Below, in pieces: positions 1,902 through 30,379 of a stretch of DNA of 64,000 bases. Source of the stretch: a bacterium (GTDB taxonomy: Bacteria; Actinomycetota; Acidimicrobiia; Spongiisociales; Spongiisociaceae); assembly GCA_028821265.1 (NCBI GenBank), contig JAPPGU010000073.1:3149-67148 (forward strand), given 5' to 3'. The notes under the pieces were generated by a model. That model saw only the letters and a list, made by a program, of their open reading frames with translations, had not been told where the DNA came from and made no database searches. The stretch's first letter is position 1; every line of letters begins with the position of its first letter. The translations under genes and the position numbers were made by a program.

Positions 1902-3899
1902 ATGGGAACAAGAATCGCGGTGGACATCGGTGGGACCTTCACCGATCTGGTCATGGAGTCGGACGCCGGAACGCAGGTCTCCAAGGTTCTGAGTACCCCC
2001 GAGGACCTGGTCGACGGCGTGCTGGATGCGGTGGAGAAGGCCGGCGCCGACCTCGCTGACGTATCGCTCTTCATCCACGGGACCACGGTTGGGCTGAACA
2101 CCTTCCTCGAGCGTTCCGGCGGCAAGGTGGCCCTGGTCACCACCAGGGGTTATCGCGACGCCTACATCATCGGCCGGGGCCACCGGCCCGACATGTACGA
2201 CCTGAAGTATCACAAACCCGCCACGCTGGTCGAGCGGGACTCCATCCTCGAAATCGACGAGCGGATCAGCGCATCCGGTGAGGAGCTACTCCCGCTCGAC
2301 GCCAATTCGGTGGAGGTGGTGGCCAAGGCCATTGCCGAGGCCGAGTACGAAGCGGTGGCGGTCTCCCTCATCCATTCCTATGTCGACCCGTTGCACGAGT
2401 TGGAGACACGAGAGATTCTCCGCAGGACCCTCCCCGACATTCCCATCGTGCTCAGCCACGAGGTAGCGCCCGAGTGGCGGGAGTACGAGCGGACTTCCTC
2501 AACCGTGACCTCGGTGTACATCACCCCCCGGGTTCGCGACTACCTGTCACGGTTGTCCGAGGCCCTCCGTGACAAGGGCCTGTCGGTGCCGCTCCACATA
2601 ACCCAGTCGAACGGCGGGGCGATGATCGCCGACTCGGCGGCCGACCGGGCGGTGCTCACCCTCTACTCGGGACCGGTGGGTGGCGTGATCGGAGGCCGGG
2701 AGGTGGGCCGGAAGACCGACCAACCCGACCTCATCTGCATCGACATGGGCGGCACCTCTTTCGACGTCTCGATCGTACGCGGCGGTCAGGTGGGCATGCA
2801 GTCCGAGTTCGAGCTCCAGGGCCTGCCGATCCTGGCGCCCGCGGTGGAGTTGGTGAGCATCGGCGCCGGCGGCGGGAGTTTGATCTACGAGCGGCACGGC
2901 GGGCTCCGGGTGGGTCCCGAGTCCGCGGGCTCGTTCCCAGGCCCGGCCAGCTACGGGCGGGGCGGCGTCCGCCCCACCGTCTCGGATGCCAACGTGGTGC
3001 TGGGGCGCATTCCGCGAGCCCAGAAGCTGGCCGGTTCCTTCACGCTGGATCGCCAGGCCGCCGAGGACGCGCTGGACTCCGTGGCCGGGTTCTTCGACCT
3101 GACGGCGACGGAACTGGCCGAGCAAGCGCTCGACGTCACCCACTTCGTCATGGCCGAGGCGATCCGCGAGTTGACCGTGGAGCGCGGCCTGCATCCCAAG
3201 GACTTCGCCATCGTGGCCTTCGGCGGGGCGGGCCCCCTCCACGCCGCCTTCTTGGCCGAGGAGCTCGAGGTGGAGCGGGTGCTGATACCCGCCGATCCTG
3301 GCGTCTTCTCCGCCTGGGGAATGCTCCAGGGCGACGTCCGTCACGATGCCGTGACCACCCATTACCGGAGGCTGGACCAGCCCATCGTCGACCTGACCGA
3401 GCCACTCGAGCGGCTCAAGGACAAGGTTTGCCGCGAGATGGAGGTGGATGAGGAGCAGCGGGCCGGAATGCGCTTCGAGACGCACGTCGAGCTGCGGTAC
3501 GTGGGCCAGGAGTACTCCCTGCCCATCCCGTTGGCGGATGCGGCTGCCGACGAAGAGTTCAAGGCGAGCTTCCACGCCCGCTACGAGGAGCGCTACGGCC
3601 ACGCCAACCCGGAGGCCCCCATCGAGATGGTCGCCATCCGCTTGACGGGCATCCGCGAGTTCGAGCGCGGGCCGTCCGGCAACGGCAACGGGCAGGCCGG
3701 CGGGGCGGCCCGCACCAGCGAGCAGGTCATCTTCGACGGGCGGTCCCTGGAGGTCCCGATCGTGGACCGGGGCGACCTGTCCGGTCGTCTGGTGGGCCCG
3801 GCCATCGTCATGGAATCATCCACCACCACAGTGGTCCCTCCCGGCTGGGAACTCCGCGTGGGATCCCAGGGCCATCTGATCATGGAAAGGGGAGGCTGA
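1902..3899 (+). CDS. hyuA: Hydantoinase A / oxoprolinase family protein (ATP-dependent hydantoinase, A subunit)
   Basis: 665 aa. Actin-fold ATPase motifs IAVDIGGTFTDLV and CIDMGGTSFDVS, with the typical HyuA length and layout. It is followed 3 nt later by a hyuB-type gene. Confidence 0.85.
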   Translation: MGTRIAVDIGGTFTDLVMESDAGTQVSKVLSTPEDLVDGVLDAVEKAGADLADVSLFIHGTTVGLNTFLERSGGKVALVTTRGYRDAYIIGRGHRPDMYDLKYHKPATLVERDSILEIDERISASGEELLPLDANSVEVVAKAIAEAEYEAVAVSLIHSYVDPLHELETREILRRTLPDIPIVLSHEVAPEWREYERTSSTVTSVYITPRVRDYLSRLSEALRDKGLSVPLHITQSNGGAMIADSAADRAVLTLYSGPVGGVIGGREVGRKTDQPDLICIDMGGTSFDVSIVRGGQVGMQSEFELQGLPILAPAVELVSIGAGGGSLIYERHGGLRVGPESAGSFPGPASYGRGGVRPTVSDANVVLGRIPRAQKLAGSFTLDRQAAEDALDSVAGFFDLTATELAEQALDVTHFVMAEAIRELTVERGLHPKDFAIVAFGGAGPLHAAFLAEELEVERVLIPADPGVFSAWGMLQGDVRHDAVTTHYRRLDQPIVDLTEPLERLKDKVCREMEVDEEQRAGMRFETHVELRYVGQEYSLPIPLADAAADEEFKASFHARYEERYGHANPEAPIEMVAIRLTGIREFERGPSGNGNGQAGGAARTSEQVIFDGRSLEVPIVDRGDLSGRLVGPAIVMESSTTTVVPPGWELRVGSQGHLIMERGG

Positions 3900-3901
3900 C
3901 C

Positions 3902-5557
3902 ATGAGCGACACCACCGTCAACGGCGAAAACCGGAACATGCCCTCGCCGGCCACGGTCGAGGTGGTCCGCCATGCCTTCATCTCCGGGGCGGAGCAGATG
4001 CGGAGGAACCTGTATCGCAGCGCTCACAGCCCGGTCATCTACGAGATGAAGGACTGCTCGGTGGGGATCTTCGACGCCGAGGGCCACCTGCTCGGCCAGG
4101 CGCCGGGTCTCCCGTTCTTCCTGGGAAGCCTGGGCGGGACCATCCGGGCCGTTATCGGGATCAACGGTTACGAGGTCTTCCGGGAAGGGGATGTCTGGAT
4201 CGTCAACGATTCGACTATCGCCGGTAGCCATCTCAACGATGTGACCGTATACGCTCCGATCTTCGTGGACGGGTTGTTGCGCGGGTTCACCGCCGCCAAG
4301 GCCCACTGGAACGACATCGGCGCCAAGGACGCCGGCTTCGCCGGTGACACCACGGACATCTTCCAGGAAGGTCTGCGCATCGGACCGACCTGCATCTTCC
4401 GGGACGGCCGTCTCGACCAGCAGATCGTGGATCTGATCGCCCTCAATTCCAGGTTCCCGACCGCGCTGGTGGGTGACCTGATGGCCGAGATCAGCGCCTG
4501 CCGGACCGGGGTGGAGCGATTCCGTTCCATCGTGCACCGGTTCGGCTGGGATCAGGTGGAGAAATCCATCCATGCCGTGTTCGAGCAGGCCGAGGCCGAG
4601 GACCGGCGGTCGGTGGCGGAGATCCCCGACGGTGTCTACGTCGAGGACGCCTACCTGGACAACGATGGCGTGACCGAGGATCCCGTCCACGTGAAGGTGA
4701 CGGTCACCGTCGAGGGTGACAGTATGACCGTCGACCTGACCGGCTCCAATAAGCAGAACGTGGGCAGCGTCAACAGCGGCATCGTGCAGACCCGATCGGG
4801 TATCGAGCAGGGCTTCAAGTTCCTGGTCAACCCGCATTCGCCGGTGTCGGGAGGGAACTTCCGGAACCTAGAGGTCATCGCGCCGGAGGGGACCTGTTTC
4901 AACCCGAGCGAAACCGCCGCCTGCCTCAAGTACGGGCCCCATCTGATGTTGGCGCTGGATCTGATGATCAAGGCCCTGAGCCGGGTCGTGCCGGAGCGGG
5001 CCGCGGCGGGGCACGTGGGCGACTCCTGGAACGTGATCATCGTGGGGGAGGACGAGTTCGGCCTGTTCCTGTCGGGGGAGGCCCTGACGGGCGGTTGGGG
5101 TGCCTTCGAGGGGGGCGACGGCGAGTCGGCTCTCATCCACTCGGCGGCGGGCGACTTCAAGAACTTCCCGATCGAGACCATGGAGCACCGCTACCCGCTG
5201 ATCATGAGGCGCCACAGCCTGCGCGAGGGCTCGGGCGGCGACGGGAAGTGGCGGGGCGGCATGGGCATCGTCCGCGAGTACGAGATCCTGGCGCCGGTGA
5301 CGATCCAGCTCTGGTTCGAGCGGGCCGTCCAGCAGCCTTCCTGGGGGCTGTTCGGCGGCCAGGACGGCGCGTCGCCGGAGGTGTGGGTGCACCGTCCCGG
5401 CGAGGAGCCCGAGAAGATGTACAAGGCCAACGATCTGAAGGTCGAGCCCGGGACCCGGTTGGTGGTGAAGACCGGGGGAGGGGGAGGCTGGGGCGACCCC
5501 GCCGAGCGTGCCCCCGAGGACCGAGCCACAGACCGTCGCCTGGAGTTGGTCCCCTGA
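3902..5557 (+). CDS. hyuB: Hydantoinase B / oxoprolinase family protein
   Basis: 551 aa. N-terminal TVEVVRHAFISGAEQM, WIVNDSTIAGSHLNDVTVYAPIF, and C-terminal GGGGGWGDP, all characteristic of the HyuB/OplB family. Confidence 0.85.
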   Translation: MSDTTVNGENRNMPSPATVEVVRHAFISGAEQMRRNLYRSAHSPVIYEMKDCSVGIFDAEGHLLGQAPGLPFFLGSLGGTIRAVIGINGYEVFREGDVWIVNDSTIAGSHLNDVTVYAPIFVDGLLRGFTAAKAHWNDIGAKDAGFAGDTTDIFQEGLRIGPTCIFRDGRLDQQIVDLIALNSRFPTALVGDLMAEISACRTGVERFRSIVHRFGWDQVEKSIHAVFEQAEAEDRRSVAEIPDGVYVEDAYLDNDGVTEDPVHVKVTVTVEGDSMTVDLTGSNKQNVGSVNSGIVQTRSGIEQGFKFLVNPHSPVSGGNFRNLEVIAPEGTCFNPSETAACLKYGPHLMLALDLMIKALSRVVPERAAAGHVGDSWNVIIVGEDEFGLFLSGEALTGGWGAFEGGDGESALIHSAAGDFKNFPIETMEHRYPLIMRRHSLREGSGGDGKWRGGMGIVREYEILAPVTIQLWFERAVQQPSWGLFGGQDGASPEVWVHRPGEEPEKMYKANDLKVEPGTRLVVKTGGGGGWGDPAERAPEDRATDRRLELVP

Positions 5558-7211
5558 GTCCCGGGTAGTCGAAATCAGAACCCCCGACCTGTCCGCTCCG
5601 TCGCCCGCGACGGTCGAGGTGGTGCGGAACGCGTTCATCTCCGGGGCGGAGCAGATGCGGAGGAACCTCTACCGGAGCGCGTACAGCCCGGTGATCTACG
5701 AGGCTAAGGACTGCTCGGTGGGGATCTTCGACGCCGAGGGCCACCTGCTGGGCCAGGCGCCGGGTCTCCCGTTCTTCCTGGGAAGCCTGGGCGGGACCAT
5801 CCGGGCCGTTATCGGGATCAAGGGTTACGAGGTCTTCCGGGAAGGGGATGTCTGGATCGTCAACGATTCGACCATTGCCGGTAGCCATCTCAACGATGTG
5901 ACCGTGTACGCTCCGATCTTCGTGGACGGGTTGTTGCGCGGGTTCTCGGCGGCCAAGGCCCACTGGAACGACATCGGAGCCAAGCGGGCCGGCTACGTGG
6001 GTGACAGCACGGACATCTTCCAGGAAGGTCTCCGGATCGGCCCCACGTGCATCTTCCGGGACGGCCGGCTTGATCAGCAGATCGTGGACCTGATCGCTCT
6101 GAACTCCCGTTTCCCGACCGCGCTGGTGGGTGACCTGATGGCCGAGATCAGTGCCTGCCGGACCGGGGTGGAGCGGTTCCGGTCGATAGTGCGCCGTTTC
6201 GGGTGGGCTCAGGTCGAAACCTCTTTACGGCTGGTCTTCGACCAGGCGGAGGTCGAGGACCGTGCCTCGGTGGCCGAGATACCCGATGGCGTCTACGTGG
6301 CTGACGGGTACCTCGACGACGACGGTGTCACCGAGGACCCCGTCTACGTCAAGGTCACCGTCACGGTGGAGGGTGACAGCATGACCGTAGACCTCTCCGG
6401 CTCCAACCGCCAGTGTGTCGGCAGCATCAACAGCGGCATCGTGCAGACCCGGTCCGGCATCGAGCAGGGTTTCAAGTTTCTCGTCAATCCCCACGCTCCG
6501 GTGTCGGGAGGGAACTTCCGCAACCTCGAAGTGATCGCGCCGGAGGGCACCTGCTTCAACCCGGCCGAGACCGCCCCCTGCCTCCACTACGGACCCCACC
6601 TGATGCTGGCCATCGACCTCATGATCAAGGCCTTGAGCGCGGTGATTCCCGAGCGGACCGCGGCGGGACATGTGGGCGATTCGTGGAATGTCAGCATCGT
6701 GGGGGAGAACGAGTTCGGCCTCTTCCTCTCAGGCGAGTCGCTGACGGGGGGTTGGGGCGCCTACGAGGGCGGGGACGGCGAGTCGGCCCTGACCCACTCG
6801 GCAGCCGGGGAATACCGGAACCAACCGATCGAGTCGTTGGAGAACCGGTATCCGTTCCTGATGCGCCGTCACGCCCTGCGGGACGGTTCCGGCGGTGACG
6901 GGAAGTGGCGCGGTGGCCTGGGGATCATCCGGGAGTACGAACTCCTGGCTCCATGTACCGTCAACCTCTGGTTCGAGCGTTCCAAGCAACCGTCGTGGGG
7001 TCTCTTCGGTGGGGAGGCCGGGGCGTCGCCCGAGGTGTGGGTGCACCGTCCTGGCCAGGCTCCCACCCGGATGCTCAAGGCCAACGGTCTCAAGGTGGAG
7101 GCCGGAACGAGGCTCCTGGTGATGACCGGCGGGGGAGGGGGCTGGGGGGACCCGGCGGAGCGCACCGCGGCGGATCGTGAACGGGACCGCCGCCTCGAGA
7201 TGGTCATCTGA
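5508..7211 (+). CDS. hyuB: Hydantoinase B / oxoprolinase family protein, tandem paralog of the preceding gene
   Basis: Collinear with 3902..5557 over nearly the whole length, with the same motifs. The only canonical in-frame start upstream of the conserved TVEVVRNAF segment is GTG 5508, which overlaps the previous gene by 50 nt and has no nearby SD, so the start is uncertain. Confidence 0.8.
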   Translation: MPPRTEPQTVAWSWSPESRVVEIRTPDLSAPSPATVEVVRNAFISGAEQMRRNLYRSAYSPVIYEAKDCSVGIFDAEGHLLGQAPGLPFFLGSLGGTIRAVIGIKGYEVFREGDVWIVNDSTIAGSHLNDVTVYAPIFVDGLLRGFSAAKAHWNDIGAKRAGYVGDSTDIFQEGLRIGPTCIFRDGRLDQQIVDLIALNSRFPTALVGDLMAEISACRTGVERFRSIVRRFGWAQVETSLRLVFDQAEVEDRASVAEIPDGVYVADGYLDDDGVTEDPVYVKVTVTVEGDSMTVDLSGSNRQCVGSINSGIVQTRSGIEQGFKFLVNPHAPVSGGNFRNLEVIAPEGTCFNPAETAPCLHYGPHLMLAIDLMIKALSAVIPERTAAGHVGDSWNVSIVGENEFGLFLSGESLTGGWGAYEGGDGESALTHSAAGEYRNQPIESLENRYPFLMRRHALRDGSGGDGKWRGGLGIIREYELLAPCTVNLWFERSKQPSWGLFGGEAGASPEVWVHRPGQAPTRMLKANGLKVEAGTRLLVMTGGGGGWGDPAERTAADRERDRRLEMVI

Positions 7212-11250: not shown

Positions 11251-11423
11251 GTCACCCGTCCGTGATCGACCACTCCAAGTTATCACGGCCCGGCAACGTA
11301 CCAGCGTCCGACTTTCGCTTTCGAGCGGGGGGAGAGAGAGTGGCCGCGGATGTTGTAACCAGGGCAAGGACAGTTGTCATCCAAACTAGGGAGCACGAGG
11401 AACTCGGTAGCCTCCGGGTCGCT

Positions 11424-11447
11424 CACTGGCCACTGGCCTCTGGCCAC
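11424..11447. repeat. Imperfect heptamer direct repeat CACTGGC-CACTGGC-CTCTGGC-CAC
   Basis: Read directly from the sequence. It lies about 40 nt upstream of the preferred GTG start (11488) of the XDH-family operon and shares the CCACTG core with the array at 27884..27918. Confidence 0.7.
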
Positions 11448-11487
11448 TTATGATTCAGCATCGACAGCTGCCGGCAGAAGACTGGAA

Positions 11488-12369
11488 GTGGATTACCTTC
11501 GACCTCGCACCTGGCAGGATGCAGTAGCGCTGAAGACGGAGAACCCGGCCGCGGTTCCGATCAACGGCGGTACCGATCTCATGGTCGAGATCAAGTTCGC
11601 CGGCCGCAGGCCGGCGTGCCTCCTCGACCTCTCCCATCTCCAGGTGCTCAAGGGATGGAGGAAGAGCAACGGTACGGTCGAACTCGGGGCCGGCGTCACC
11701 TACACGGATGTCCTGGAGCATCTGGGTGGCGACCTTCCCGCCCTGGCCATCGCGTCCCGGACGGTCGGATCGCCGCAGATCCGGAACCGGGGCACCATCG
11801 CGGGGAACCTCGCGACCGCCTCTCCCGCCGGGGATGCGCACCCGCCGTTGCTGGCCACGGGCGCGACGGTCCGGGTCGAGTCGATGCGGGGGGTCCGCGA
11901 TGTCCCGGTCGGGCGGTTCTTCACCGGCCCCAAGCAAAACGTGCTGGAGCCGGACGAGCTGATCAGGGCCGTCCTGGTTCCAGCGGCCCGAGGTCCCCAG
12001 CAGTTCTCCAAGGTCGGGACTCGCAACGCGATGGTGATCGCGGTGGTCTCCTTTGCCCTCGCCTTCGACATACCGAGCCGGCATGTAGGGACCGGGATCG
12101 GTTCCGCAGCTCCCACCCCCATCGAGGCCGCCGACGCCACGGCCTACCTGGAGCAGGAACTCGACCGCGGGGGGTACTGGGAGGAGCATCGAGACCTTCC
12201 CGCCGGGACCGTGGATGGCTTCGCCGAGAGGGTGGCGGCCGCTGCCCGGCCGATCAACGACGTTCGCGGGCCGGCCGGTTACCGGGTCCATGCACTGCGC
12301 GTGATGGCCCGCAGGACCCTCCGTTGGGCATGGTCGGCTCTGGAGACGGACGGGACCCATGCTCATTGA
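11488..12369 (+). CDS. Xanthine dehydrogenase family FAD-binding (medium, CoxM/CutM-like) subunit
   Basis: INGGTDLMVEIK and GTIAGNLATASPAGD motifs of the molybdopterin-dehydrogenase FAD-binding domain. GTG 11488 gives about 293 aa with a (V)DYLRPRTWQDAVAL N-terminus typical for this subunit. An alternative TTG at 11374 would add 38 aa. Confidence 0.8.
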   Translation: MDYLRPRTWQDAVALKTENPAAVPINGGTDLMVEIKFAGRRPACLLDLSHLQVLKGWRKSNGTVELGAGVTYTDVLEHLGGDLPALAIASRTVGSPQIRNRGTIAGNLATASPAGDAHPPLLATGATVRVESMRGVRDVPVGRFFTGPKQNVLEPDELIRAVLVPAARGPQQFSKVGTRNAMVIAVVSFALAFDIPSRHVGTGIGSAAPTPIEAADATAYLEQELDRGGYWEEHRDLPAGTVDGFAERVAAAARPINDVRGPAGYRVHALRVMARRTLRWAWSALETDGTHAH

Positions 12370-12829
12370 GTTGATAGTCAACGGTCGGCGCCGCACCGCC
12401 GAGAACGTCCGGGCCGGTGAGAGCCTGCTGTACGTCCTGAGGGAGCACCTCGGTCTGAGGGGTTCGAAGGACGCTTGCGAGCAGGGCGAGTGCGGATCGT
12501 GCTCCGTGTACCTGAACGGTGACCTCGTCTGCGCGTGCCTGGTGTCGGCCGGCCAGGCGGATGGCGCGGAGGTGGTGACGGTGGAAGGTCTATCGGACGG
12601 GGAGTCGCTCCATCCGATCCAGCAGGCGTACGTGTCCGAGGGAGCGGTCCAGTGCGGCTTCTGCACGCCCGGGCTGATAGTCGCCACCCACTGCCTGCTC
12701 GATGCCAGCTCCGATCCCTCGGACGAAGAGATACGTGAGGCCCTGGCCGGGAACCTTTGCCGTTGCACCGGCTACGAGAAGATCGTCTCCGCGGTCCGGC
12801 TGGCCGCGACGGAGACGGCGGCCGGATGA
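12359..12829 (+). CDS. Xanthine dehydrogenase family [2Fe-2S] small (CoxS-like) subunit
   Basis: 156 aa. CEQGECGSCSV (plant-type 2Fe-2S) plus CGFCTPG and CRCTGY motifs. Overlaps the upstream gene by 11 nt. Confidence 0.9.
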   Translation: MLIELIVNGRRRTAENVRAGESLLYVLREHLGLRGSKDACEQGECGSCSVYLNGDLVCACLVSAGQADGAEVVTVEGLSDGESLHPIQQAYVSEGAVQCGFCTPGLIVATHCLLDASSDPSDEEIREALAGNLCRCTGYEKIVSAVRLAATETAAG

Positions 12830-13821
12830 GCTCCGTTTCCATCCGGTCCCGGACCGGCCCGAGCGTCACCGTCTTGACCGGCTTCCTGGGCGCCGGGAAG
12901 ACCACCCTCGTGAACCACATTCTCTCTAGGGACCACGGTCGGCGCATCGCGGTGATAGTGAACGAGATGGGCGAGATCGGAGTCGACGGAGATCTCATCG
13001 TCTCCTCCGACGAGGAGATCATCGAGATGGCCAACGGCTGTGTCTGCTGCACGCTGTCGGTCCGCAACGATCTGGCCGCCACGATCCGCAAGCTGCTGGC
13101 CCGCCCCGAGCCGCCCGACTACGTGGTCATCGAGACCAGCGGAGTGGCCGACCCGGTTCCGGTGACCCAGGCGCTCTTCGTGGAAGGCTTGGCGGATCGC
13201 ATAGGGGTTGACGGGATTGTGACCATGGTCGACGCCAAACACGTGGACGTACACCTGGACGCGTTCGGCCCCGACCGGCCCGACAGCCGGGTGGTGGATC
13301 AGATCCTGTGCGCCGACCGCATCGTGCTCAACAAGACGGATCTGGTCGAGCCCGATGCCTTGCGGAACACAGAGGCTCGCATCAGAGAACTCAATAGCAC
13401 CGCGCCGGTCATCAGATCGAGCTATTCCAGGGTGGATCCGGGTGAGATTCTCGGGATCGAGGCCTTCGGTAGATCGCCGGCCTCGGCAGGCGGCGGGTTC
13501 CTCGAGGACACCTACGTCCACTCCCGCGATCCGGGCGTGGAGGCCATCAGTGTCGAGGTCGACGGCGAGTTGGACGAGGCCAGGCTGAGGGAGTGGCTCG
13601 AGGCCCTCACTGAGGCGCGATCCGCCGATATCTACCGCATCAAGGGCATCCTCGCCGTGGCGGGGCAACCGCGCCAGACCATCCTCCAAGGGGTCCATCG
13701 GCTCTTCGAGATCTATCCGGGCGGGCGATGGTCGGGAGGCCGGAGCAGCCGGCTCGTCTTCATCGGCCGTGATCTCGATCGCCGGATGCTGCGGTCCGGT
13801 CTGGAAAGCTGCCGCGCGTGA
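12826..13821 (+). CDS. COG0523 (CobW/ZigA/YeiR-like) G3E-family metallochaperone GTPase
   Basis: Walker A GFLGAGKTTL, the COG0523 metal motif GCVCC, NKTD, and a CobW_C-like C-terminal domain. The ATG 12826 overlaps the previous stop (ATGA). Confidence 0.85.
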   Translation: MSSVSIRSRTGPSVTVLTGFLGAGKTTLVNHILSRDHGRRIAVIVNEMGEIGVDGDLIVSSDEEIIEMANGCVCCTLSVRNDLAATIRKLLARPEPPDYVVIETSGVADPVPVTQALFVEGLADRIGVDGIVTMVDAKHVDVHLDAFGPDRPDSRVVDQILCADRIVLNKTDLVEPDALRNTEARIRELNSTAPVIRSSYSRVDPGEILGIEAFGRSPASAGGGFLEDTYVHSRDPGVEAISVEVDGELDEARLREWLEALTEARSADIYRIKGILAVAGQPRQTILQGVHRLFEIYPGGRWSGGRSSRLVFIGRDLDRRMLRSGLESCRA

Positions 13822-16166
13822 TGGGTCCTCGCCAGCAACTGGACACGAAGGTTCGTGACCGCACGACCCACGCCCGCGGCGTCGGCACGTCGCCCCCGCG
13901 CCCCGACGCCCCGCTCAAGGTGCTGGGCCGCTTCGCCTACGCCTCGGACCTCCACATAGACGGCATGCTGTGGGGCGCCACGGTCAGGAGTCCGCACCCG
14001 AGGGCACGCATCCTGGGTGTCGACATCGGCCAGGCCCTGGCGATCCGGGGGGTTGCCACCGTGCTGACCGCCGAGGACGTGCCCGGACACCGTTTCTACG
14101 GCATCAAGGTGGCTGACCAGCCCGTCCTGGCCGCCCACGAAGTCCGGTACGTGGGGGAGCCGGTGGCGATCGTGGCCGCCGACCATCCCGAGACGGCCCG
14201 TAGGGCGGTCGAGGCCGTCACCGTCGAGTACGAGGTGCAGGCGCCCCTGACCGATCCTGAATCCTCCCTGGCAGGGGACGGGGATCCGATCGACCCGGGC
14301 GGGAACGTGGCGCGGCACGTTCGCATCCGCCACGGGGACGTTGCAGCGGCTCGCTCGCGGGCAGAGATCGTCATCGAAGCCGAGTACCGCTCCGGGGTCC
14401 AGGATCCGGCCTTCCTGGGCCCGGAAGCCGGTCTGGCGGTGCCGGACGGGAGCGGCGGCATCGACCTGTACGTGGCGGCGCAGTGGATCCACGACGACCG
14501 GCGCCAGGTGGCAGCCGCTCTCGGGCTGGATCCGGGCATGGTGCGCCTGACGCTGAGCGGGGTAGGCGGTGCGTTCGGGGGCCGGGAGGATCTGTCGGTC
14601 CACATCCATGCCTGCATGCTGGCGCTGCGGATGGGCCGTCCCGTCAAGATGTCCTACAACCGGGAGGAGTCCTTCGTCGGCCACGTCCATCGGCACCCCT
14701 CGCGGATCCGGGTGGAGTTGGGCGCCCGCCGGGACGGAACCCTGGTCTACTCCAAGGTGAGGCTCCTGCTGGACGGAGGCGCCTACACGTCCACCTCGCA
14801 GATCGTCATCGCCAACGCCTCCTACTTCGCCGCCGGCGCCTACGCCGTCGACCACGTCGAGATCGACGGCTACGCCGTCTACACCAACAACCCTCCCCGC
14901 GGCGCCATGCGCGGCTTCGGGGCAGTCCAGGCCTGCTACGCCATCGAATCGGCCATGGACCGCCTCGCGGGGGAACTGGACATGGACGCGGTGGAACTGA
15001 GGATCCGTAATGCCATCCAGGCGGGAGACCTCCTACCCACCGGACAGGTGATTGACGGCCCCGCCCCAACCCGCGAACTCCTCGATCATCTGCGCAGTCT
15101 TCCCCTGCCCCCCAAGCGTCCTGCGGCAGGCGAGGACCTGAGGCGGCTGCCCGGCGGCGTGGGCAATACCACCCACGGGGAGGCGGTGGTCCGGGGGGTC
15201 GGCTACGCCCTCGGGATGAAGGCGATCGGCTTCTCGGGAGGCGTGGACGACATCTCCACGGCGCGAGTGTCGGTCTCGGTTGCAGGCGGCCGGCCCGTGG
15301 CGGAGGTCTACAGCGCCGCCTCGGAATGCGGGCAGGGCATCGTGGCGGTCCAGGCCCAGATAGTGCGCACCGAACTGGGCATCGACTCGGTGACGGTCCG
15401 GCCCGCCGACACTGACATCGGGGACGCCGGCTCGTCGGCGGCCTCCCGCCAGACCTGGATGACCGGGGGAGCGGTCGAGGGCGCCTGCCACGGCGTGCGC
15501 GAGCGGATCCTCGAGCGGGCCGCCCGGCGCCTCGGTTGCTCTCCGCGAGACCTGGCTCTCACTCCCCACGGGGTCACGGTTCCCGGCAAGGGGGAGGCTC
15601 TCGTTGGTCTTGCCGACATCCTCGGCCATGACACGATCGAGCACACCTTCGTGTACCACCACCGGCCTACCGAGCCCATCGACGACGTCCGGGGCCAGGG
15701 CAACGCCCACATCGCCTTCGCCTACGCCGCCCACCGGGCGGTGGTCGACGTGGACACCGAGCTGGGTCTGGTCCGGGTGGTCGAGCTGGCCACCGCCCAG
15801 GATGTGGGGAGAGCCATGAACCCCCAAGCCGTCGAGGGCCAGATCGAAGGCGGTTCCGCCCAGGGTCTCGGCCTCGCCCTGCTGGAGGAGGTCCAGGTCG
15901 AGGACGGCTTCGTGAAGAACGCTTCCTTCACCGACTACCTGGTCCCGACCATCCTCGACATGCCTCCCATGAACGTCCGGCTCTTCGAGTTCCCCCATCC
16001 CGACTCCCCGTACGGGCTCAACGGGGTGGGGGAGCCGCCCACGCTGTCCTCCACCCCGGCCATCGTCAACGCCTTGCGCAACGCCACCGGCCTCGACCTC
16101 CCGCGGGTTCCGGTCCGGCCGACCGATCTGATCGCGTCGCTCAAGAGCGACGGGTCACCCTGCTAG
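13818..16166 (+). CDS. Xanthine dehydrogenase family molybdopterin-binding large (CoxL/aldehyde-oxidase-like) subunit
   Basis: 782 aa. An N-terminal a/b-hammerhead-like region (PLKVLGRFAYASDL..GMLWGATVRSPHPRARI), then GGAFGGRED and RGFGAVQ motifs. The start overlaps the COG0523 stop (GTGATG). Confidence 0.85.
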   Translation: MMGPRQQLDTKVRDRTTHARGVGTSPPRPDAPLKVLGRFAYASDLHIDGMLWGATVRSPHPRARILGVDIGQALAIRGVATVLTAEDVPGHRFYGIKVADQPVLAAHEVRYVGEPVAIVAADHPETARRAVEAVTVEYEVQAPLTDPESSLAGDGDPIDPGGNVARHVRIRHGDVAAARSRAEIVIEAEYRSGVQDPAFLGPEAGLAVPDGSGGIDLYVAAQWIHDDRRQVAAALGLDPGMVRLTLSGVGGAFGGREDLSVHIHACMLALRMGRPVKMSYNREESFVGHVHRHPSRIRVELGARRDGTLVYSKVRLLLDGGAYTSTSQIVIANASYFAAGAYAVDHVEIDGYAVYTNNPPRGAMRGFGAVQACYAIESAMDRLAGELDMDAVELRIRNAIQAGDLLPTGQVIDGPAPTRELLDHLRSLPLPPKRPAAGEDLRRLPGGVGNTTHGEAVVRGVGYALGMKAIGFSGGVDDISTARVSVSVAGGRPVAEVYSAASECGQGIVAVQAQIVRTELGIDSVTVRPADTDIGDAGSSAASRQTWMTGGAVEGACHGVRERILERAARRLGCSPRDLALTPHGVTVPGKGEALVGLADILGHDTIEHTFVYHHRPTEPIDDVRGQGNAHIAFAYAAHRAVVDVDTELGLVRVVELATAQDVGRAMNPQAVEGQIEGGSAQGLGLALLEEVQVEDGFVKNASFTDYLVPTILDMPPMNVRLFEFPHPDSPYGLNGVGEPPTLSSTPAIVNALRNATGLDLPRVPVRPTDLIASLKSDGSPC

Positions 16167-16395
16167 TGCCCTGTTTCGGTAGCTCCTCATCAGCACCCGA
16201 GACGACGAGAACGCGAAAAACGCCAGACCACGCCCCTCCCCGGCGGGCCCATCCCCCAGCCACCACCTCCTTTGGTCCGTGCGCGTTCCGCTATCCCCCG
16301 ACGGGTCCGCTCCCGAATTGATTCCGGCTCCGGTTCCCTCGACGTCGAATAAGCAGGAAACCGGTGGTGCTTGTGACTGCCGGACAGTATGCGGC

Positions 16396-16418
16396 GGGGC
16401 TGTGACATGTTCAGCCCC
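16396..16418. terminator. Hairpin GGGGCTG-(9 nt)-CAGCCCC in a convergent intergenic region
   Basis: A 7-bp perfect stem read from the sequence, followed by CTTGTT. It lies between the converging XDH large-subunit and thioredoxin-fold genes. There is no strong U-tract. Confidence 0.3.
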
Positions 16419-16550
16419 CTTGTTCGCCCGGCACCGCACCGCCCGCGACAAGCTACCGATCACAGACCGCAGCGAAGAGGCATAGGACACCCGGTCGGCG
16501 CTACAGATCATCCACTACCCGTCGTGCCCGTTGTTCCTAGCCGACTACCG

Positions 16551-17705
16551 CTAGCGGCGGAGCAGTTGCTTGATCCGGCGGGCTGCCGGGGTCCATAGCC
16601 ACTCGGGTTCGGTGTACCGGCGATGGTCCTCGCCGGGCAAGCCCATGGGTGCGTAGTAGCTCTTGTCGGAGTTCTTACGCAGGTAGCTCGTACGCCTCAG
16701 CACCTTCAGCGAGGCATAGATCGTTCCCTTGTGGGTCCAGCCCTGCCGCAGGTAGTTCCAGTTGTCGGGCGCCAGATGCTGCGCCGCGGTGAAGTGGTGC
16801 CAAGCACGCTCGCTGTCGCCCACCGCCTCGAAGTGCAATGCCAGCTTGAACGTCGCCTCTGCCAGGCTCAGTTCGTCGTCGACGGGCTTAAGGTGCTCGG
16901 CCAGTTCCTCGTAAGACCAGACGTGCTCGCTATCGGGTCCCTTCTCGATCCAATCGCGGGTGGCCCGAGCGAATGCGTCGTCACCGACGCGCACCTTGCC
17001 GAGGCCGAACCCGATGGTCGTCCTTGCCGGATACGTACCCTCGTTGCTGCGCACGATGCGCCCGTTCTCGTCGATCCACGCGGCTGACGGCACGCTCACC
17101 CAGCCGAAGAGCGAGCTGATCTGGTGGGTCGGGTCGACCACGCACCGGTAGGAGGGCGAGGCCCGTACAAACCACTTGTCTACAGCCTTGGCGCCTCCGG
17201 AGTCCTCAGCCACGCTGATCAACTCGAACCGGTCAGGACCGATCGATTCGTAAAGATCCTGCCAGTCCGGCAGGCTGAAGCGGCACCCTCACCAGGATGA
17301 CCAGGTGAACAGCACCACCTTGCGGCCGCGCAGGTCCGAGAGCCGTAGCGTGTGGCCGTTGCGCTCGGTCACCTCGAAGTCGGGGGCTAGCCCGGACTCG
17401 AGCCCGGCTTGACGGACTTGGGGCACCGAGCCGAGGCTCCACACATCCCCGTCGCGCACGTACTTCTGGCCGATCCTGTCCGCGAATTCCGAGTAGCAGA
17501 ACCAGACCCAGTCGTCGGCGTCCGCGATCCACTCCTCGCGCTTGTCACCCGGCAGGGGCACGCACAGGTCGCCCAGGCAGGCGCCTTCCGGCTTCATCTG
17601 CCAGCCGGTGGCGCGAGGGAGTTCGTCCATCCGCACCCATAGTGCCCCAGCGGGTTCGGTCCGCCGGGCGACTCGGTGCGTCTTGCCGTTTGCGAGGATG
17701 ATCAT
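16551..17705 (-). CDS. Candidate selenoprotein: ResA/TlpA-like thioredoxin-fold protein with in-frame UGA (WSSW-U-GC), 384 codons if read through
   Basis: Track ORFs 17289..17705 and 16551..17222 are in the same frame. The only stop between 17705 and 16551 is the TGA at 17289..17291. Read-through gives APDFEVTERNGHTLRLSDLRGRKVVLFTWSSW-U-GCRFSLPDWQDLY...ELISVAEDSGG...AAWIDENGRIV, a redoxin-like pattern with the UGA at the nucleophilic Cys position. Confidence 0.6.
17258..17274 (-). promoter_or_regulatory. SECIS-like hairpin downstream of the in-frame UGA
   Basis: The mRNA reads UGA-GGGUGCCGCUUCAG-CCUGCC-GGACU-GGCAGG. This is a 6-bp perfect stem starting 14 nt after the UGA, with a 5-nt apical loop beginning GG about 21 nt after the UGA. 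Confidence 0.45.
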
Positions 17706-17995
17706 GCTTGCTCCGCGAGAGCTGATTCGCCCGGTCAGGTGAGCGCTAAGCCGTGCGTCAGACTCAGTAATACCTCACCGTAGTGCTCGCCGGCGACGAA
17801 GGCTATCGGACCATGGACGGCCATCACCAGCCGCTACCGATTGGAGGTGCGGTTTTCGTTTCCCGACGGCCGGGTGTGGCGAGGACCGAGCGCGCCTGGT
17901 CGCGGTCGGATGCCTGGTGATTCGGGTCGGGGCAGTCCTATTGGTACCGTCCGGTCCCGCACGGGAGTGCCGAGGGGGTCCTTCTTGTAGAGAGG

Positions 17996-19411
17996 ATGAA
18001 TCATGCGCTCAGCAGCGAAGAGACCCGGTCGGTGAAGGCGGATCGAGTCCGTCCGGGCTTGTTGGGCCTGGCGTTGGCGTCCATCATCTTGGCGGCGTGC
18101 GGGCCGGGGGATGATCCGTCGACACCGGGGGCTTCAGTCGTGTCGACCCTCTCCGGGACCACGGCTGGAACGATCGCGGCCTCGACCACACTGGCCCCGG
18201 TTGTCGGGACGGGCCCCGACGGCGTGTCCGCAGATGCGCGTTCCCTCGTTGACAGTTGGCTATCCGCGGTGTCGGAGTCTGGTGGCGCGTGGCCGGGCTA
18301 TGACCTTGCGAACATCCCCACGGTGCTGGTCTCGGTGGGTGTCGACGGGAGCGTTGAAGCTGTGGTGGCCTTCAACCACCCGAGTCCGGACGCTCTGGGA
18401 GACGCGATGCTCAACGTTGAGGTGGACGGCCATCGGGCGACGGTCGTCGGGGATCCAGCCGACCCGGAGAGGCTGGCTTCGATGGCGCCATTCGACTTCT
18501 TCGCGGACATCGGCGGTACGGAGACCTTCGTGCTGGTCGGGCAGCGGGGAGAGCCGGGCCGGGAGCCTGACACTCCGGGGTTCGTGGCGATGGTCGCCCA
18601 TGAGGCGTTCCACCGGTACCAGTTCGATCACTGGGTCCCCGGCGCGGCTGTCCAGGACGTGGAGGGATACGACTTCGGGGCGGAGAACCTCGAGTTGGTG
18701 CTCCTCGAGAACCGGATACTGGTCGCTGCCTACCAGGCACGGACGGTGGCGGAAACCGAGCGGCTGGCCCGCCAGTTCGCGGCGGTACGCGCCGCCCGGC
18801 ACGCGCGGGATCCCAGGGTTGCCCTCGACGAGGGGCAGGAACGGATGGAGGGGTCGGCCCGATGGATCGAGCACCGGATGGGCGACGCGATCGGGAATAC
18901 CTACTTCTCTACCAACCACACCAGCGAACTCGGCTACCTGGATGAGAGTATCGACGACCCTGGGGCGGTGCTGGGCAACGTCAAGTCGTTCTTCGGGTTC
19001 GGGCGCTTCTACAGCAGCGGCGCCACCGTGCTGGCTCTGCTCGAACGCCTCGGTGTGGCCGGCGCCGACGTTGCTGAACGGCTCGGGGATGGTGATACAC
19101 CTGCCCAGTTGCTGCAACAGCGCATCGCACCCCTAGGCAACCGTGACGAGTTGGTGGCGTCGGCCTGGGCGGAGCACGATCCGGATGGCCGGCTCGGCGC
19201 GGCCGCGGCAGTCCTCGCCGAGTTGGCTGCCGGCGAAGGGGAAGCCGACTTCGGCGCCGGTGACGTTCCTGCCGAGACGCTCGGGCCCGGGTTCGAGGTC
19301 GGTGATGACCAGATCGCGTGCCTCGAGGAACACGGGCTCGACCTGAGCGCCGACAGCGTCACGATCCCCGACGACATCGCCGCTGCCTGCTTCGGCGACC
19401 CGGCCTCCTGA
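17996..19411 (+). CDS. Putative secreted lipoprotein with HExxH motif (uncharacterised metalloprotease-like)
   Basis: Lipobox-like signal LALASIILAAC, a Thr/Ala-rich linker, and the MVAHEAFHRYQ motif. I do not confidently recognise any family. Confidence 0.5.
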   Translation: MNHALSSEETRSVKADRVRPGLLGLALASIILAACGPGDDPSTPGASVVSTLSGTTAGTIAASTTLAPVVGTGPDGVSADARSLVDSWLSAVSESGGAWPGYDLANIPTVLVSVGVDGSVEAVVAFNHPSPDALGDAMLNVEVDGHRATVVGDPADPERLASMAPFDFFADIGGTETFVLVGQRGEPGREPDTPGFVAMVAHEAFHRYQFDHWVPGAAVQDVEGYDFGAENLELVLLENRILVAAYQARTVAETERLARQFAAVRAARHARDPRVALDEGQERMEGSARWIEHRMGDAIGNTYFSTNHTSELGYLDESIDDPGAVLGNVKSFFGFGRFYSSGATVLALLERLGVAGADVAERLGDGDTPAQLLQQRIAPLGNRDELVASAWAEHDPDGRLGAAAAVLAELAAGEGEADFGAGDVPAETLGPGFEVGDDQIACLEEHGLDLSADSVTIPDDIAAACFGDPAS

Positions 19412-29107: not shown

Positions 29108-30379
29108 ATGACGAGGTTGGTGCCGCGCCGGACAAACCGCTCCGAACTCGCCGCCGTGCGCCGCCGGCTGGCCTTCGTACTGTTCTCGGGGGCGGCCGTG
29201 GCCTGGCTCGCCTTCGTGGCCACTCTCGCCGTGGCGACCGTGGCCGCCCGTTCCCTGAGTGGATCCACCATGATGGCGGGTCTGCCGCTGGCGGCCGGCG
29301 CCCTTGGCCAGGCGCTGGGAACCAACGGGTTGGGACGGCTGAGCACCCGCTACGGGCGCCGGTTCATCATGGTCGCCGGCCCGCCCGTCTCCGCCTTCGG
29401 GGCGGCGTTGGAGCTGGTGGGGGTGGTGGCCGGTTGGTACTGGGTGCTGGTGGGAGGCGCGGTCCTGATGGGAGCGGGCGTCGGCGCCATCCATCTCGCC
29501 CGGTACGTTGCCGCCGAGCTGGCCCAGGAATCCGAGCGAGGCAAGGCGATGGGCCTCCTGGTGTGGTCGGCGACCATAGGGTCGGTGATCGGCGCCAACC
29601 TGGTGGACTGGGCCGGGCGCTTGGTGGAGGATTGGTTGGGCACCCCGTACGGCGGGGCCTTCCTGCTGGCCACAATCGCCTTTCTACTGTCCGGGGTGAT
29701 CTTCTGGGTCGGATTGCGCCCCGATCCTTCCCGGGTGGCGGTGACTCCTGCGATCCGTCCCGAGCATGGCGGATCGGTGGGTGCGGCCCTGCGCCTTCCG
29801 TCCGTCCAGATCTCCATCCTGGCCCTGCTGTCGGCCCAGGGCGCCATGGTCCTCGTGATGACCGCGACCCCGCTCCGCATCGAGGACGCCGGCTACGGCA
29901 TCGACGCGGTCGGCGTGGTGCTCTCGGTCCACGCGGTCGGGATGTTCGCCTTCGCCCCTCTCGTGGGCAAGCTGGTCGACCGCCTGGGACGCCTTCCCAT
30001 GCTGGGGATGGGCATGAGCCTCACCGCCGTCTCCCTTCTCTTGGCCGGTACCGCACCCTACGACAGCCTCTTCACTTTGGCCTTGGGCTTGTTCGTGCTC
30101 GGATTGGGTTGGAGCTTCTCCTTCCTCGCCAGCAGTTCCATGCTGTTCGCCTCGGCTCCTCCCGATGTCCGCCAGGTGGTGGAGGGATGGGCCGACTCGG
30201 CGGCGTGGACGATGGTCATGGTGGGAAGCGTCGTATCGGGGGTGCTGATGGGCACCGTCGGATACAGCTGGCTGAGCCTGGTAGCCGCCCTGCCGATGTC
30301 GTTCATTCTCGTCCTGGCCCTCGCCGTTCCCCGCCTGCGCACCGCTATCACAGCCTCGAGAACCCGACCACTAGTCTGA
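29108..30379 (+). CDS. MFS transporter
   Basis: About 423 aa from ATG 29108, with 11-12 hydrophobic helices and the G-R-L-S-x-R-Y-G-R-R loop motif between TM2 and TM3. The upstream extension of the track ORF overlaps the dehydrogenase gene. Confidence 0.8.
   Translation: MTRLVPRRTNRSELAAVRRRLAFVLFSGAAVAWLAFVATLAVATVAARSLSGSTMMAGLPLAAGALGQALGTNGLGRLSTRYGRRFIMVAGPPVSAFGAALELVGVVAGWYWVLVGGAVLMGAGVGAIHLARYVAAELAQESERGKAMGLLVWSATIGSVIGANLVDWAGRLVEDWLGTPYGGAFLLATIAFLLSGVIFWVGLRPDPSRVAVTPAIRPEHGGSVGAALRLPSVQISILALLSAQGAMVLVMTATPLRIEDAGYGIDAVGVVLSVHAVGMFAFAPLVGKLVDRLGRLPMLGMGMSLTAVSLLLAGTAPYDSLFTLALGLFVLGLGWSFSFLASSSMLFASAPPDVRQVVEGWADSAAWTMVMVGSVVSGVLMGTVGYSWLSLVAALPMSFILVLALAVPRLRTAITASRTRPLV

Follow-up and report, generated by a model that had tools for sequence, protein, structure and literature searches.

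A TGA-split gene of an Acidimicrobiia bacterium very probably encodes a three-domain, ResA/TlpA-like selenoprotein with a U-G-C motif

We analysed a 64-kb stretch of DNA, hereafter the window, from a bacterium of the Acidimicrobiia family Spongiisociaceae (assembly GCA_028821265.1, contig JAPPGU010000073.1, positions 3,149 to 67,148; 64,000 nt), which contains a thioredoxin-fold gene with an in-frame UGA codon. Direct translation of 17705..16551 on the minus strand gives 385 codons in one frame (384 codons and a terminal TAG), and the sole internal stop of this frame is the TGA at 17291..17289. In the list of open reading frames (ORFs), the same region appears as two entries, 17289..17705 (138 amino acids, aa) and 16551..17222 (223 aa), which share one minus-strand frame, and the source assembly, a sponge metagenome deposited at ENA as ERZ23495471 (scaffold_867), splits the gene into calls of 138 aa and 220 aa. 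A previous sequence-only reading had described these two ORFs as parts of a single frame with only one TGA across 1155 nt. The translation bears out this arrangement, and the joined read-through peptide given there, ...RGRKVVLFTWSSW*GCRFSLPDWQ..., in which the asterisk is the TGA, was reproduced exactly.

The ATG at 17705 is the earliest possible start past the upstream stop. As read from the sequence, it is preceded at 5 nt by a Shine-Dalgarno-like GGAG (17711..17714, minus strand), and the orthologs begin at the same M-I/L-V/I-L/I-A-N/D. In a window of 66% GC, the GC content at third codon positions (GC3) of the two stop-to-stop pieces is 0.82 and 0.84 at full length and, counted over the 60 codons nearest the TGA, 0.88 and 0.82: both pieces show the third-position GC typical of genuine genes in the window. 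TGA is also the most frequent ordinary stop codon among the window genes, which points to recoding specific to this site and not to codon reassignment.

The evidence that carries the interpretation is comparative. The homologue search covered 5.8 billion proteins. In the public gene calls, relatives at 55-87% identity are C-terminal fragments of 211-249 aa that start soon after the UGA; those at 37-46% identity, Pirellulales and Aureibacter among them, are full length, with 353-417 aa. The alignment column of the UGA, where the sequence-only reading expected either Cys or selenocysteine (Sec), holds Cys in every aligned full-length homologue (TWASW-C-GC). A scan in which each GTDB species was represented by one genome yielded 80 loci, all from Acidimicrobiia metagenome-assembled genomes (MAGs) and many from sponge symbionts (Ca. 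Poriferisodalis, Spongiisociaceae, and Aldehydirespirator). As aligned by tblastn, these loci match residues 1-384 across the TGA, with 73-89% protein identity and 77-87% nucleotide identity, and the codon is TGA in 80/80 of them, in the context W-[S/A]-S-W-TGA-G-C. A further comparison set consisted of 88 related loci, including distant lineages, and in four more distant lineages (L081, L084, L086, and L088; 55-63% identity) the TGA is also kept.

Furthermore, substitutions concentrate at third codon positions to the same extent before and after the TGA. The mean pairwise differences at codon positions 1/2/3 amount to 0.124/0.084/0.253 for the 100 upstream codons and 0.124/0.086/0.265 for the 199 downstream codons, which indicates that the two halves share one frame and are equally constrained as protein. 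One further stop in the frame, before the Sec codon, was observed in the ortholog of an uncultured Acidimicrobiaceae MAG (region L039:2888-2959); it is the sole case among 81 sequences and could be a sequencing error or mark a decaying copy.

The best NCBIfam match of the joined protein, with U replaced by C, is NF041054.1 (WAxxUGC_long, “ResA-like WAxxUGC motif-containing protein”), with an E-value of 8.9e-76 over profile positions 8-322 of 354. The sequence-only reading had proposed this family name, and the family does exist and is the top NCBIfam match. In the window protein the motif is W-S-S-W-U-G-C, with Ser replacing the Ala of NF041054; among the 81 sequences, WSSW is found in 60 and WASW in 21. 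In the ROBB21 sponge metagenome scaffolds of ENA, two loci (L086:2932-2940 and L087) present W-S-S-W-U-T-C in place of U-G-C, so Gly is not fixed at the middle position of the motif.

The redoxin domain of ResA/TlpA type (residues 107-225; 17031..17387, minus strand) is delimited by Pfam matches to AhpC-TSA (PF00578, E=2e-15) and Redoxin (E=2e-11), by sequence matches to ResA, TlpA, DsbE, and the pneumococcal Etrx among PDB entries, and by the Foldseek comparison described below. In the HMMER alignment, ...FTWSSW-C-G-(gap)-C-R... faces ...FWATW-C-P-P-C-R..., which places the UGA at the N-terminal nucleophilic Cys of W-C-x-x-C. More precisely, in the solved ResA-like structures the residue opposite the UGA codon (17289..17291, minus strand; predicted Sec, residue 139) is the first Cys of WCPPC/WCSIC. 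Cys141 (17283..17285, minus strand), the presumed resolving residue, aligns with the resolving second Cys of C-x-x-C, and its codon is TGC or TGT in 81/81 sequences. One residue is deleted between the redox pair: the classical W-C-x-x-C is not matched, and the active site is W-U-G-C. The earlier assignment of the UGA to the redox-Cys position is thus backed both by the alignment with ResA-like structures and by the Cys of the full-length homologues.

The architecture was investigated on a structure model of P0066, a full-length Cys homologue that is 42% identical, obtained by AlphaFold from a 66-sequence alignment (predicted local distance difference test score, pLDDT, 90.6; predicted template modelling score, pTM, 0.88). 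This model has three parts, an N-terminal domain of ~100 residues with mixed beta/alpha structure, a thioredoxin fold, and a helical C-terminal domain followed by a short tail, in agreement with the layout that had been supposed from the sequence of the window gene (N-terminal domain, redoxin, TPR-like helical C-terminus). The best PDB match that Foldseek found for the thioredoxin fold of the model is of ResA type, with a root-mean-square deviation of 1.6 A over ~116 residues and a template modelling (TM) score of 0.77 when normalised on ResA. In the window protein, the C-terminal helical TPR-like domain with its tail of ~40 residues corresponds to residues ~245-384 (16554..16973, minus strand). 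The assignment is based on the helices of the homologue model, which occupy positions 250-350 and are followed by a strand and then a helix, and on precomputed Pfam TPR_1/TPR_2 matches that homologues carry in the helical domain. The C-terminal region also holds a conserved PDNWNxxRQxW motif.

The N-terminal domain (residues ~1-100; 17406..17705, minus strand) is placed by the AlphaFold2 (AF2) models; modelled alone, that of the window protein reached a pLDDT of 82. The search with its fold against PDB gave no significant match (best E = 1.2). This domain contains a pair of cysteines, Cys43-x4-Cys48 (17562..17579, minus strand), within KPEGxCxxxxC[IV]P, which is invariant in 52/52 aligned family members and may form an additional redox or metal-binding site. 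By inspection, the N-terminus has no hydrophobic leader: translation from the first possible start begins with MIILANGKTHRV..., and these residues align with the mature portion of the leader-bearing homologues. No extracytoplasmic signature (signal peptide, lipobox, or membrane anchor) was seen by inspection of the N-terminus, and we propose that the protein would be cytoplasmic.

Directly downstream of the UGA, the coding sequence contains a hairpin (17258..17274, minus strand) with a perfect 6-bp stem, CCUGCC (17274..17269) and GGCAGG (17263..17258), and the loop GGACU (17268..17264). The stem starts 14 nt past the UGA, and 20 nt lie between the UGA and the loop. The sequence-only reading had noticed this structure, which is present in the sequence as described, and had taken it for a bacterial selenocysteine insertion sequence (bSECIS) element, an assignment that is favoured both by the published consensus and by conservation at synonymous sites. 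The consensus asks for a loop of 3-9 nt, an upper stem of 4-16 bp, a G within the first two loop positions, a distance of 16-37 nt from the UGA, and a minimum free energy of at most -7.5 kcal/mol (PMC13188914). In a simplified implementation of our own of this published model, the hairpin agreed with it on all points (loop of 5 nt, stem of 6 bp, loop start GG, spacing of 20 nt, -10.0 kcal/mol).

On its own the hairpin is weak evidence, and the real signal is comparative. The Leu codon of the stem (Leu+6) is CTG in 80/81 orthologs, the exception being a TTG that retains a G-U pair, and the other Leu columns have CTG in 42-67 of 81. The AGC, CCG, and CAG codons within the hairpin are nearly fixed; the Gly, Arg, and Ser codons that flank the stem are free to vary. 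Mean codon entropy in the 7 codons that span the hairpin is 0.28, as against 0.68 for the gene, and ranks 5th from the bottom among 266 windows. The RNAalifold consensus of 69 distinct orthologous sequences is this same hairpin, with three stem variants: two C-to-U changes, in which a wobble pair remains, and one break. Finally, the hairpin is kept in Sec forms of 55-63% identity even where the encoded residues differ (Ser to Asp or Ala), and it is missing from 3/4 Cys-form genes. Codon by codon, the hairpin thus appears to be conserved beyond what the protein sequence demands.

Altogether, the single frame, the Cys homologues, the conservation of the TGA, and the hairpin support the proposal of the sequence-only reading that this is one 384-codon selenoprotein gene. 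We consider that the locus very probably holds one three-domain selenoprotein gene of the UGC-motif ResA/TlpA-like family, neither two ORFs nor a pseudogene. In the mechanism that we propose, when the ribosome reaches UGA-139, the hairpin located 14-30 nt downstream, with its apical loop GGACU, would act as a bSECIS element and recruit SelB-GTP-Sec-tRNA(Sec), so that Sec would be inserted and no termination would occur. Sec139 would then lie at the N-terminus of helix alpha-1 of the thioredoxin fold, at the site of the ResA nucleophilic Cys. By homology, it could attack the disulfide of a substrate or some other oxidised form of sulfur; Cys141 could then resolve the intermediate by closing a selenylsulfide within the molecule, between the two ends of the shortened U-G-C. 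A role in binding a partner, or in relaying to it, is probable for the two outer domains, the N-terminal one with its C-x4-C pair and the TPR-like C-terminal one.

Several observations weigh against this reading. As regards the hairpin, a comparable structure (at least 6 bp) follows 3.1% of the 1509 TGA trinucleotides of the window, and the folding energy of the 66-nt segment is unexceptional (z = -1.03). The stem varies so little that RNAalifold detected no compensatory pairs among the 69 distinct orthologous sequences. Part of the hairpin may simply follow from the encoded L-P-x-W-Q peptide, and one Cys-form gene (L091, Pirellulales MAG GCA_050251235.1) retains a 6-bp hairpin, UCUGCC-CGGCU-GGCAGA. 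No SECIS match was found in Rfam, either in a scan of the whole window at the gathering threshold or in a permissive scan of 17180..17340, which returned four weak matches to unrelated families (E>1); this null result is uninformative, since Rfam covers SECIS elements of bacteria poorly. As regards the family, the window protein scores 255.5 bits on NF041054, under the curated equivalog cutoff of 300. Moreover, no member of the UGC-type family has been studied experimentally, and the enzymatic mechanism outlined above is inferred from homology. As regards the Sec machinery, ARAGORN detected no tRNA gene, hence no tRNA-Sec, in the window, and tblastn with the E. coli SelA, SelB, and SelD proteins found no selA, selB, or selD in the window or in the 88 related loci. 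In addition, one ortholog-bearing MAG, bin134 (L013, ~90% complete), is tabulated with SelD only (PMC5649159, Table S4).

The hairpin of L091 stands at the SECIS position, 48 nt after the TGC codon of CGC, and may be a fossil SECIS from a recent switch from Sec to Cys. The scores on NF041054 are spread as follows: 255-279 in the Acidimicrobiia Sec clade, 270-279 in other Acidimicrobiia Sec forms, 325-328 in the Pirellulales Cys forms, which are above the cutoff, and 249-280 in other Cys forms. The window gene is, judging from these matches, a clear homologue of NF041054 from a sister clade outside the equivalog model and no certified member of it, and an escape of this clade from the model would fit the fragmentary public annotations. 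Concerning the Sec machinery, SelA and SelB were reported to be enriched in sponge symbionts (Slaby et al. 2017, PMC5649159), and bin76 (L017), another ortholog-bearing MAG of that work, has SelA (2), SelB (1), and SelD (1) in Table S4. Within the same class, selA/B/C/D are reported in all 84 complete Actinomarinales genomes (2026 preprint).

The lack of Sec machinery in the window and in the related loci, together with the tabulation of bin134 without SelA or SelB, would also suit an explanation in which the UGA is decoded as Cys, Trp, or Gly by near-cognate or suppressor read-through, so that leaky termination yields a normal thiol enzyme. We regard this as highly improbable: TGC and TGT are one mutation away, yet they are found in 0/84 lineages, and the fact that they are never seen indicates that the UGA itself is under selection. 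TGA is, besides, the main genuine stop in the window, the hairpin fits the SelB-type SECIS model and the GGUC loop of fdhF, and bin76 has SelA, SelB, and SelD. Every public gene call, including that of the source assembly, would rather suggest two genes that share a split redoxin, a 138-aa protein and an independently started protein of ~220-245 aa. Such a split would part strand beta-1 of the thioredoxin fold from the active-site helix, and there is no conserved start past the TGA, the called lengths ranging from 211 to 249 aa. In the window, the first start is at codon +23, which would remove the active-site helix, and the 22 codons from the TGA to this start are conserved as coding, including the invariant Cys141. 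In the homologues, a single chain runs through the junction and has Cys there. Homologues that end at the TGA and are followed by an independent downstream gene, a pattern that would have spoken for two genes, were not seen, given the inconsistent called starts and the same substitution pattern on both sides. Two separate genes are therefore extremely improbable.

A nonsense mutation in a former Cys redoxin gene, whether it reflects a pseudogene or an error of assembly or sequencing, is the remaining explanation. A lone in-frame stop in a metagenome scaffold would, in isolation, be compatible with an error, and ortholog L039 has a second stop. The same TGA is nevertheless present in 80/80 independently assembled species-level genomes and in the four additional lineages, many of them represented by long-read complete chromosomes, and purifying selection is equal on both halves. 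The probability left to this explanation is next to nil, and the comparative data effectively refute it.

If the locus is read as one selenoprotein gene, a more specific proposal can be made for the Acidimicrobiia proteins: they might make up a sister subfamily of their own, whose members have no leader (cytoplasmic) and contain Sec obligately, and in which the N-terminal C-x4-C would be a second redox centre that relays electrons to or from the selenylsulfide of U-G-C. We hold this proposal to be rather unlikely as a whole; if it were true, the subfamily would be a new multi-centre selenoenzyme, beyond a Sec version of ResA. The Acidimicrobiia Sec form is present in at least 80 species, many of which are marine-sponge symbionts.

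The finding has consequences for annotation: gene calling cut the gene in two in the source assembly and in all public relatives inspected. The fragments of these relatives, where they bear a name, are entered either as “hypothetical protein” or, truncated, as “TlpA family protein disulfide reductase”. The NF041054 model misses the Acidimicrobiia clade by 20-45 bits, and a lower cutoff or a sister model would mend the annotation in at least 80 Acidimicrobiia species. Moreover, the gene is a probable marker of selenocysteine use in abundant, mostly sponge-associated Acidimicrobiia, which fits the earlier report of SelA/SelB enrichment in sponge symbionts. Within the thioredoxin superfamily, U-G-C represents an active-site geometry that has yet to be studied. 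The finding of a selenoprotein gene does not overturn current understanding.

The genes that flank the selenoprotein gene in the window encode a molybdoenzyme of xanthine-dehydrogenase/carbon monoxide (CO)-dehydrogenase type, ABC transporters, hydantoinases, and amidohydrolases, and no link to selenium metabolism and no cytochrome-maturation genes were found among these neighbours. The neighbourhood is common to the three closest relatives only, so the context yields no functional clue. A scan of 16100..18100 found no promoter or terminator. The molybdoenzyme genes (11374-16166, plus strand) encode the flavin adenine dinucleotide (FAD), 2Fe-2S, and Mo-binding subunits and are convergent with the selenoprotein gene; a gene for a CobW-type GTPase (12757-13821) sits between the small and large subunit genes. 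Farther away (1902-7211, plus strand), a hydantoinase/oxoprolinase A gene precedes a tandem pair of genes for hydantoinase B (3902-5557 and 5508-7211). On the other side of the selenoprotein gene lies a divergent 471-aa ORF with no Pfam match (17996-19411, plus strand), which has a lipoprotein-like N-terminus, LALASIILAACG, and an HExxH-like motif, HEAFH; it is common to the closest relative (L001) only.

Other genes of this kind were also considered. In the window, a second TGA junction between pieces in the same frame (30377..30379, plus strand) has high GC3 in the 60 codons on each side; it shows no redox motif, its upstream ORF is not coding-like overall, and it was judged to be two adjacent frames meeting by chance. 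The related loci were scanned for further TGA-split genes with nothing convincing found. In the Acidimicrobiales MAG GCA_029246685.1, 2 kb from the ortholog, a UGSC-domain gene (L081:5884-6708) was observed with an in-frame TGA at GMGC-U-GSC. This gene is called as 102 aa and 471 aa, matches NF041046 with E=8e-13 (48.6 bits vs a cutoff of 125), and is a candidate for a second mis-split selenoprotein gene, which makes it an indirect sign of Sec decoding in an ortholog-bearing genome.

Among known systems, the hairpin can be compared with the SECIS of E. coli fdhF. The fdhF SECIS has a bulged U. The stem in the window differs in being a plain, perfect 6-bp helix with no such bulge, and its binding by SelB is a prediction. 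The two are alike in that the hairpin lies within the coding sequence directly 3' of the UGA; the usual loop of the clade, GGUCU, contains the apical GGUC of fdhF (GGAC in the window), and the loop lies 20 nt after the UGA vs 18 nt in fdhF.

As for the protein, Bacillus subtilis ResA and Bradyrhizobium TlpA are extracytoplasmic thiol-disulfide reductases of cytochrome c and CuA maturation. The window protein shares their fold, matching ResA in PDB at E~1e-9 by sequence, and the F-W-A/S-S/T-W lead-in is conserved, with the predicted Sec on the position of the nucleophilic Cys74 of ResA. It differs from them in its U-G-C, one residue shorter than C-x-x-C, in the predicted replacement of sulfur by selenium, in having, by inspection, no membrane anchor or signal peptide, in its extra N- and C-terminal domains, and in the absence of cytochrome-maturation genes near its gene.

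The selenoproteins closest in type come from the selenoproteome of the Global Ocean Sampling (GOS) data, where “Prx-like (UGC-containing)” selenoproteins of pfam00578 were described with the motif UGC in 46 Sec and 855 Cys sequences (PMC2398784). The resemblance of this published UGC-type TlpA/Prx-like family to the window protein, compared by family description, lies in the thioredoxin fold (pfam00578/cd02966), the single Sec in U-G-C, the abundance of Cys homologues, and a definition by computation only. The name “WAxxUGC” was not found in the literature searched, and the papers on the UGC-type family contain no Acidimicrobiia or sponge-symbiont clade. Thus, the UGC-type TlpA/Prx-like selenoprotein family is already catalogued computationally, and the window gene is a member from an uncaptured clade. 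With respect to NF041054, the window protein has a longer C-terminal tail, outside the profile, and no N-terminal hydrophobic leader, which many family members have; it shares with that family the same three-domain layout and, if Ser is allowed for the Ala of the motif, a W-[A/S]-x-x-U-G-C context, which in 21/81 orthologs reads W-A-S-W-U-G-C.

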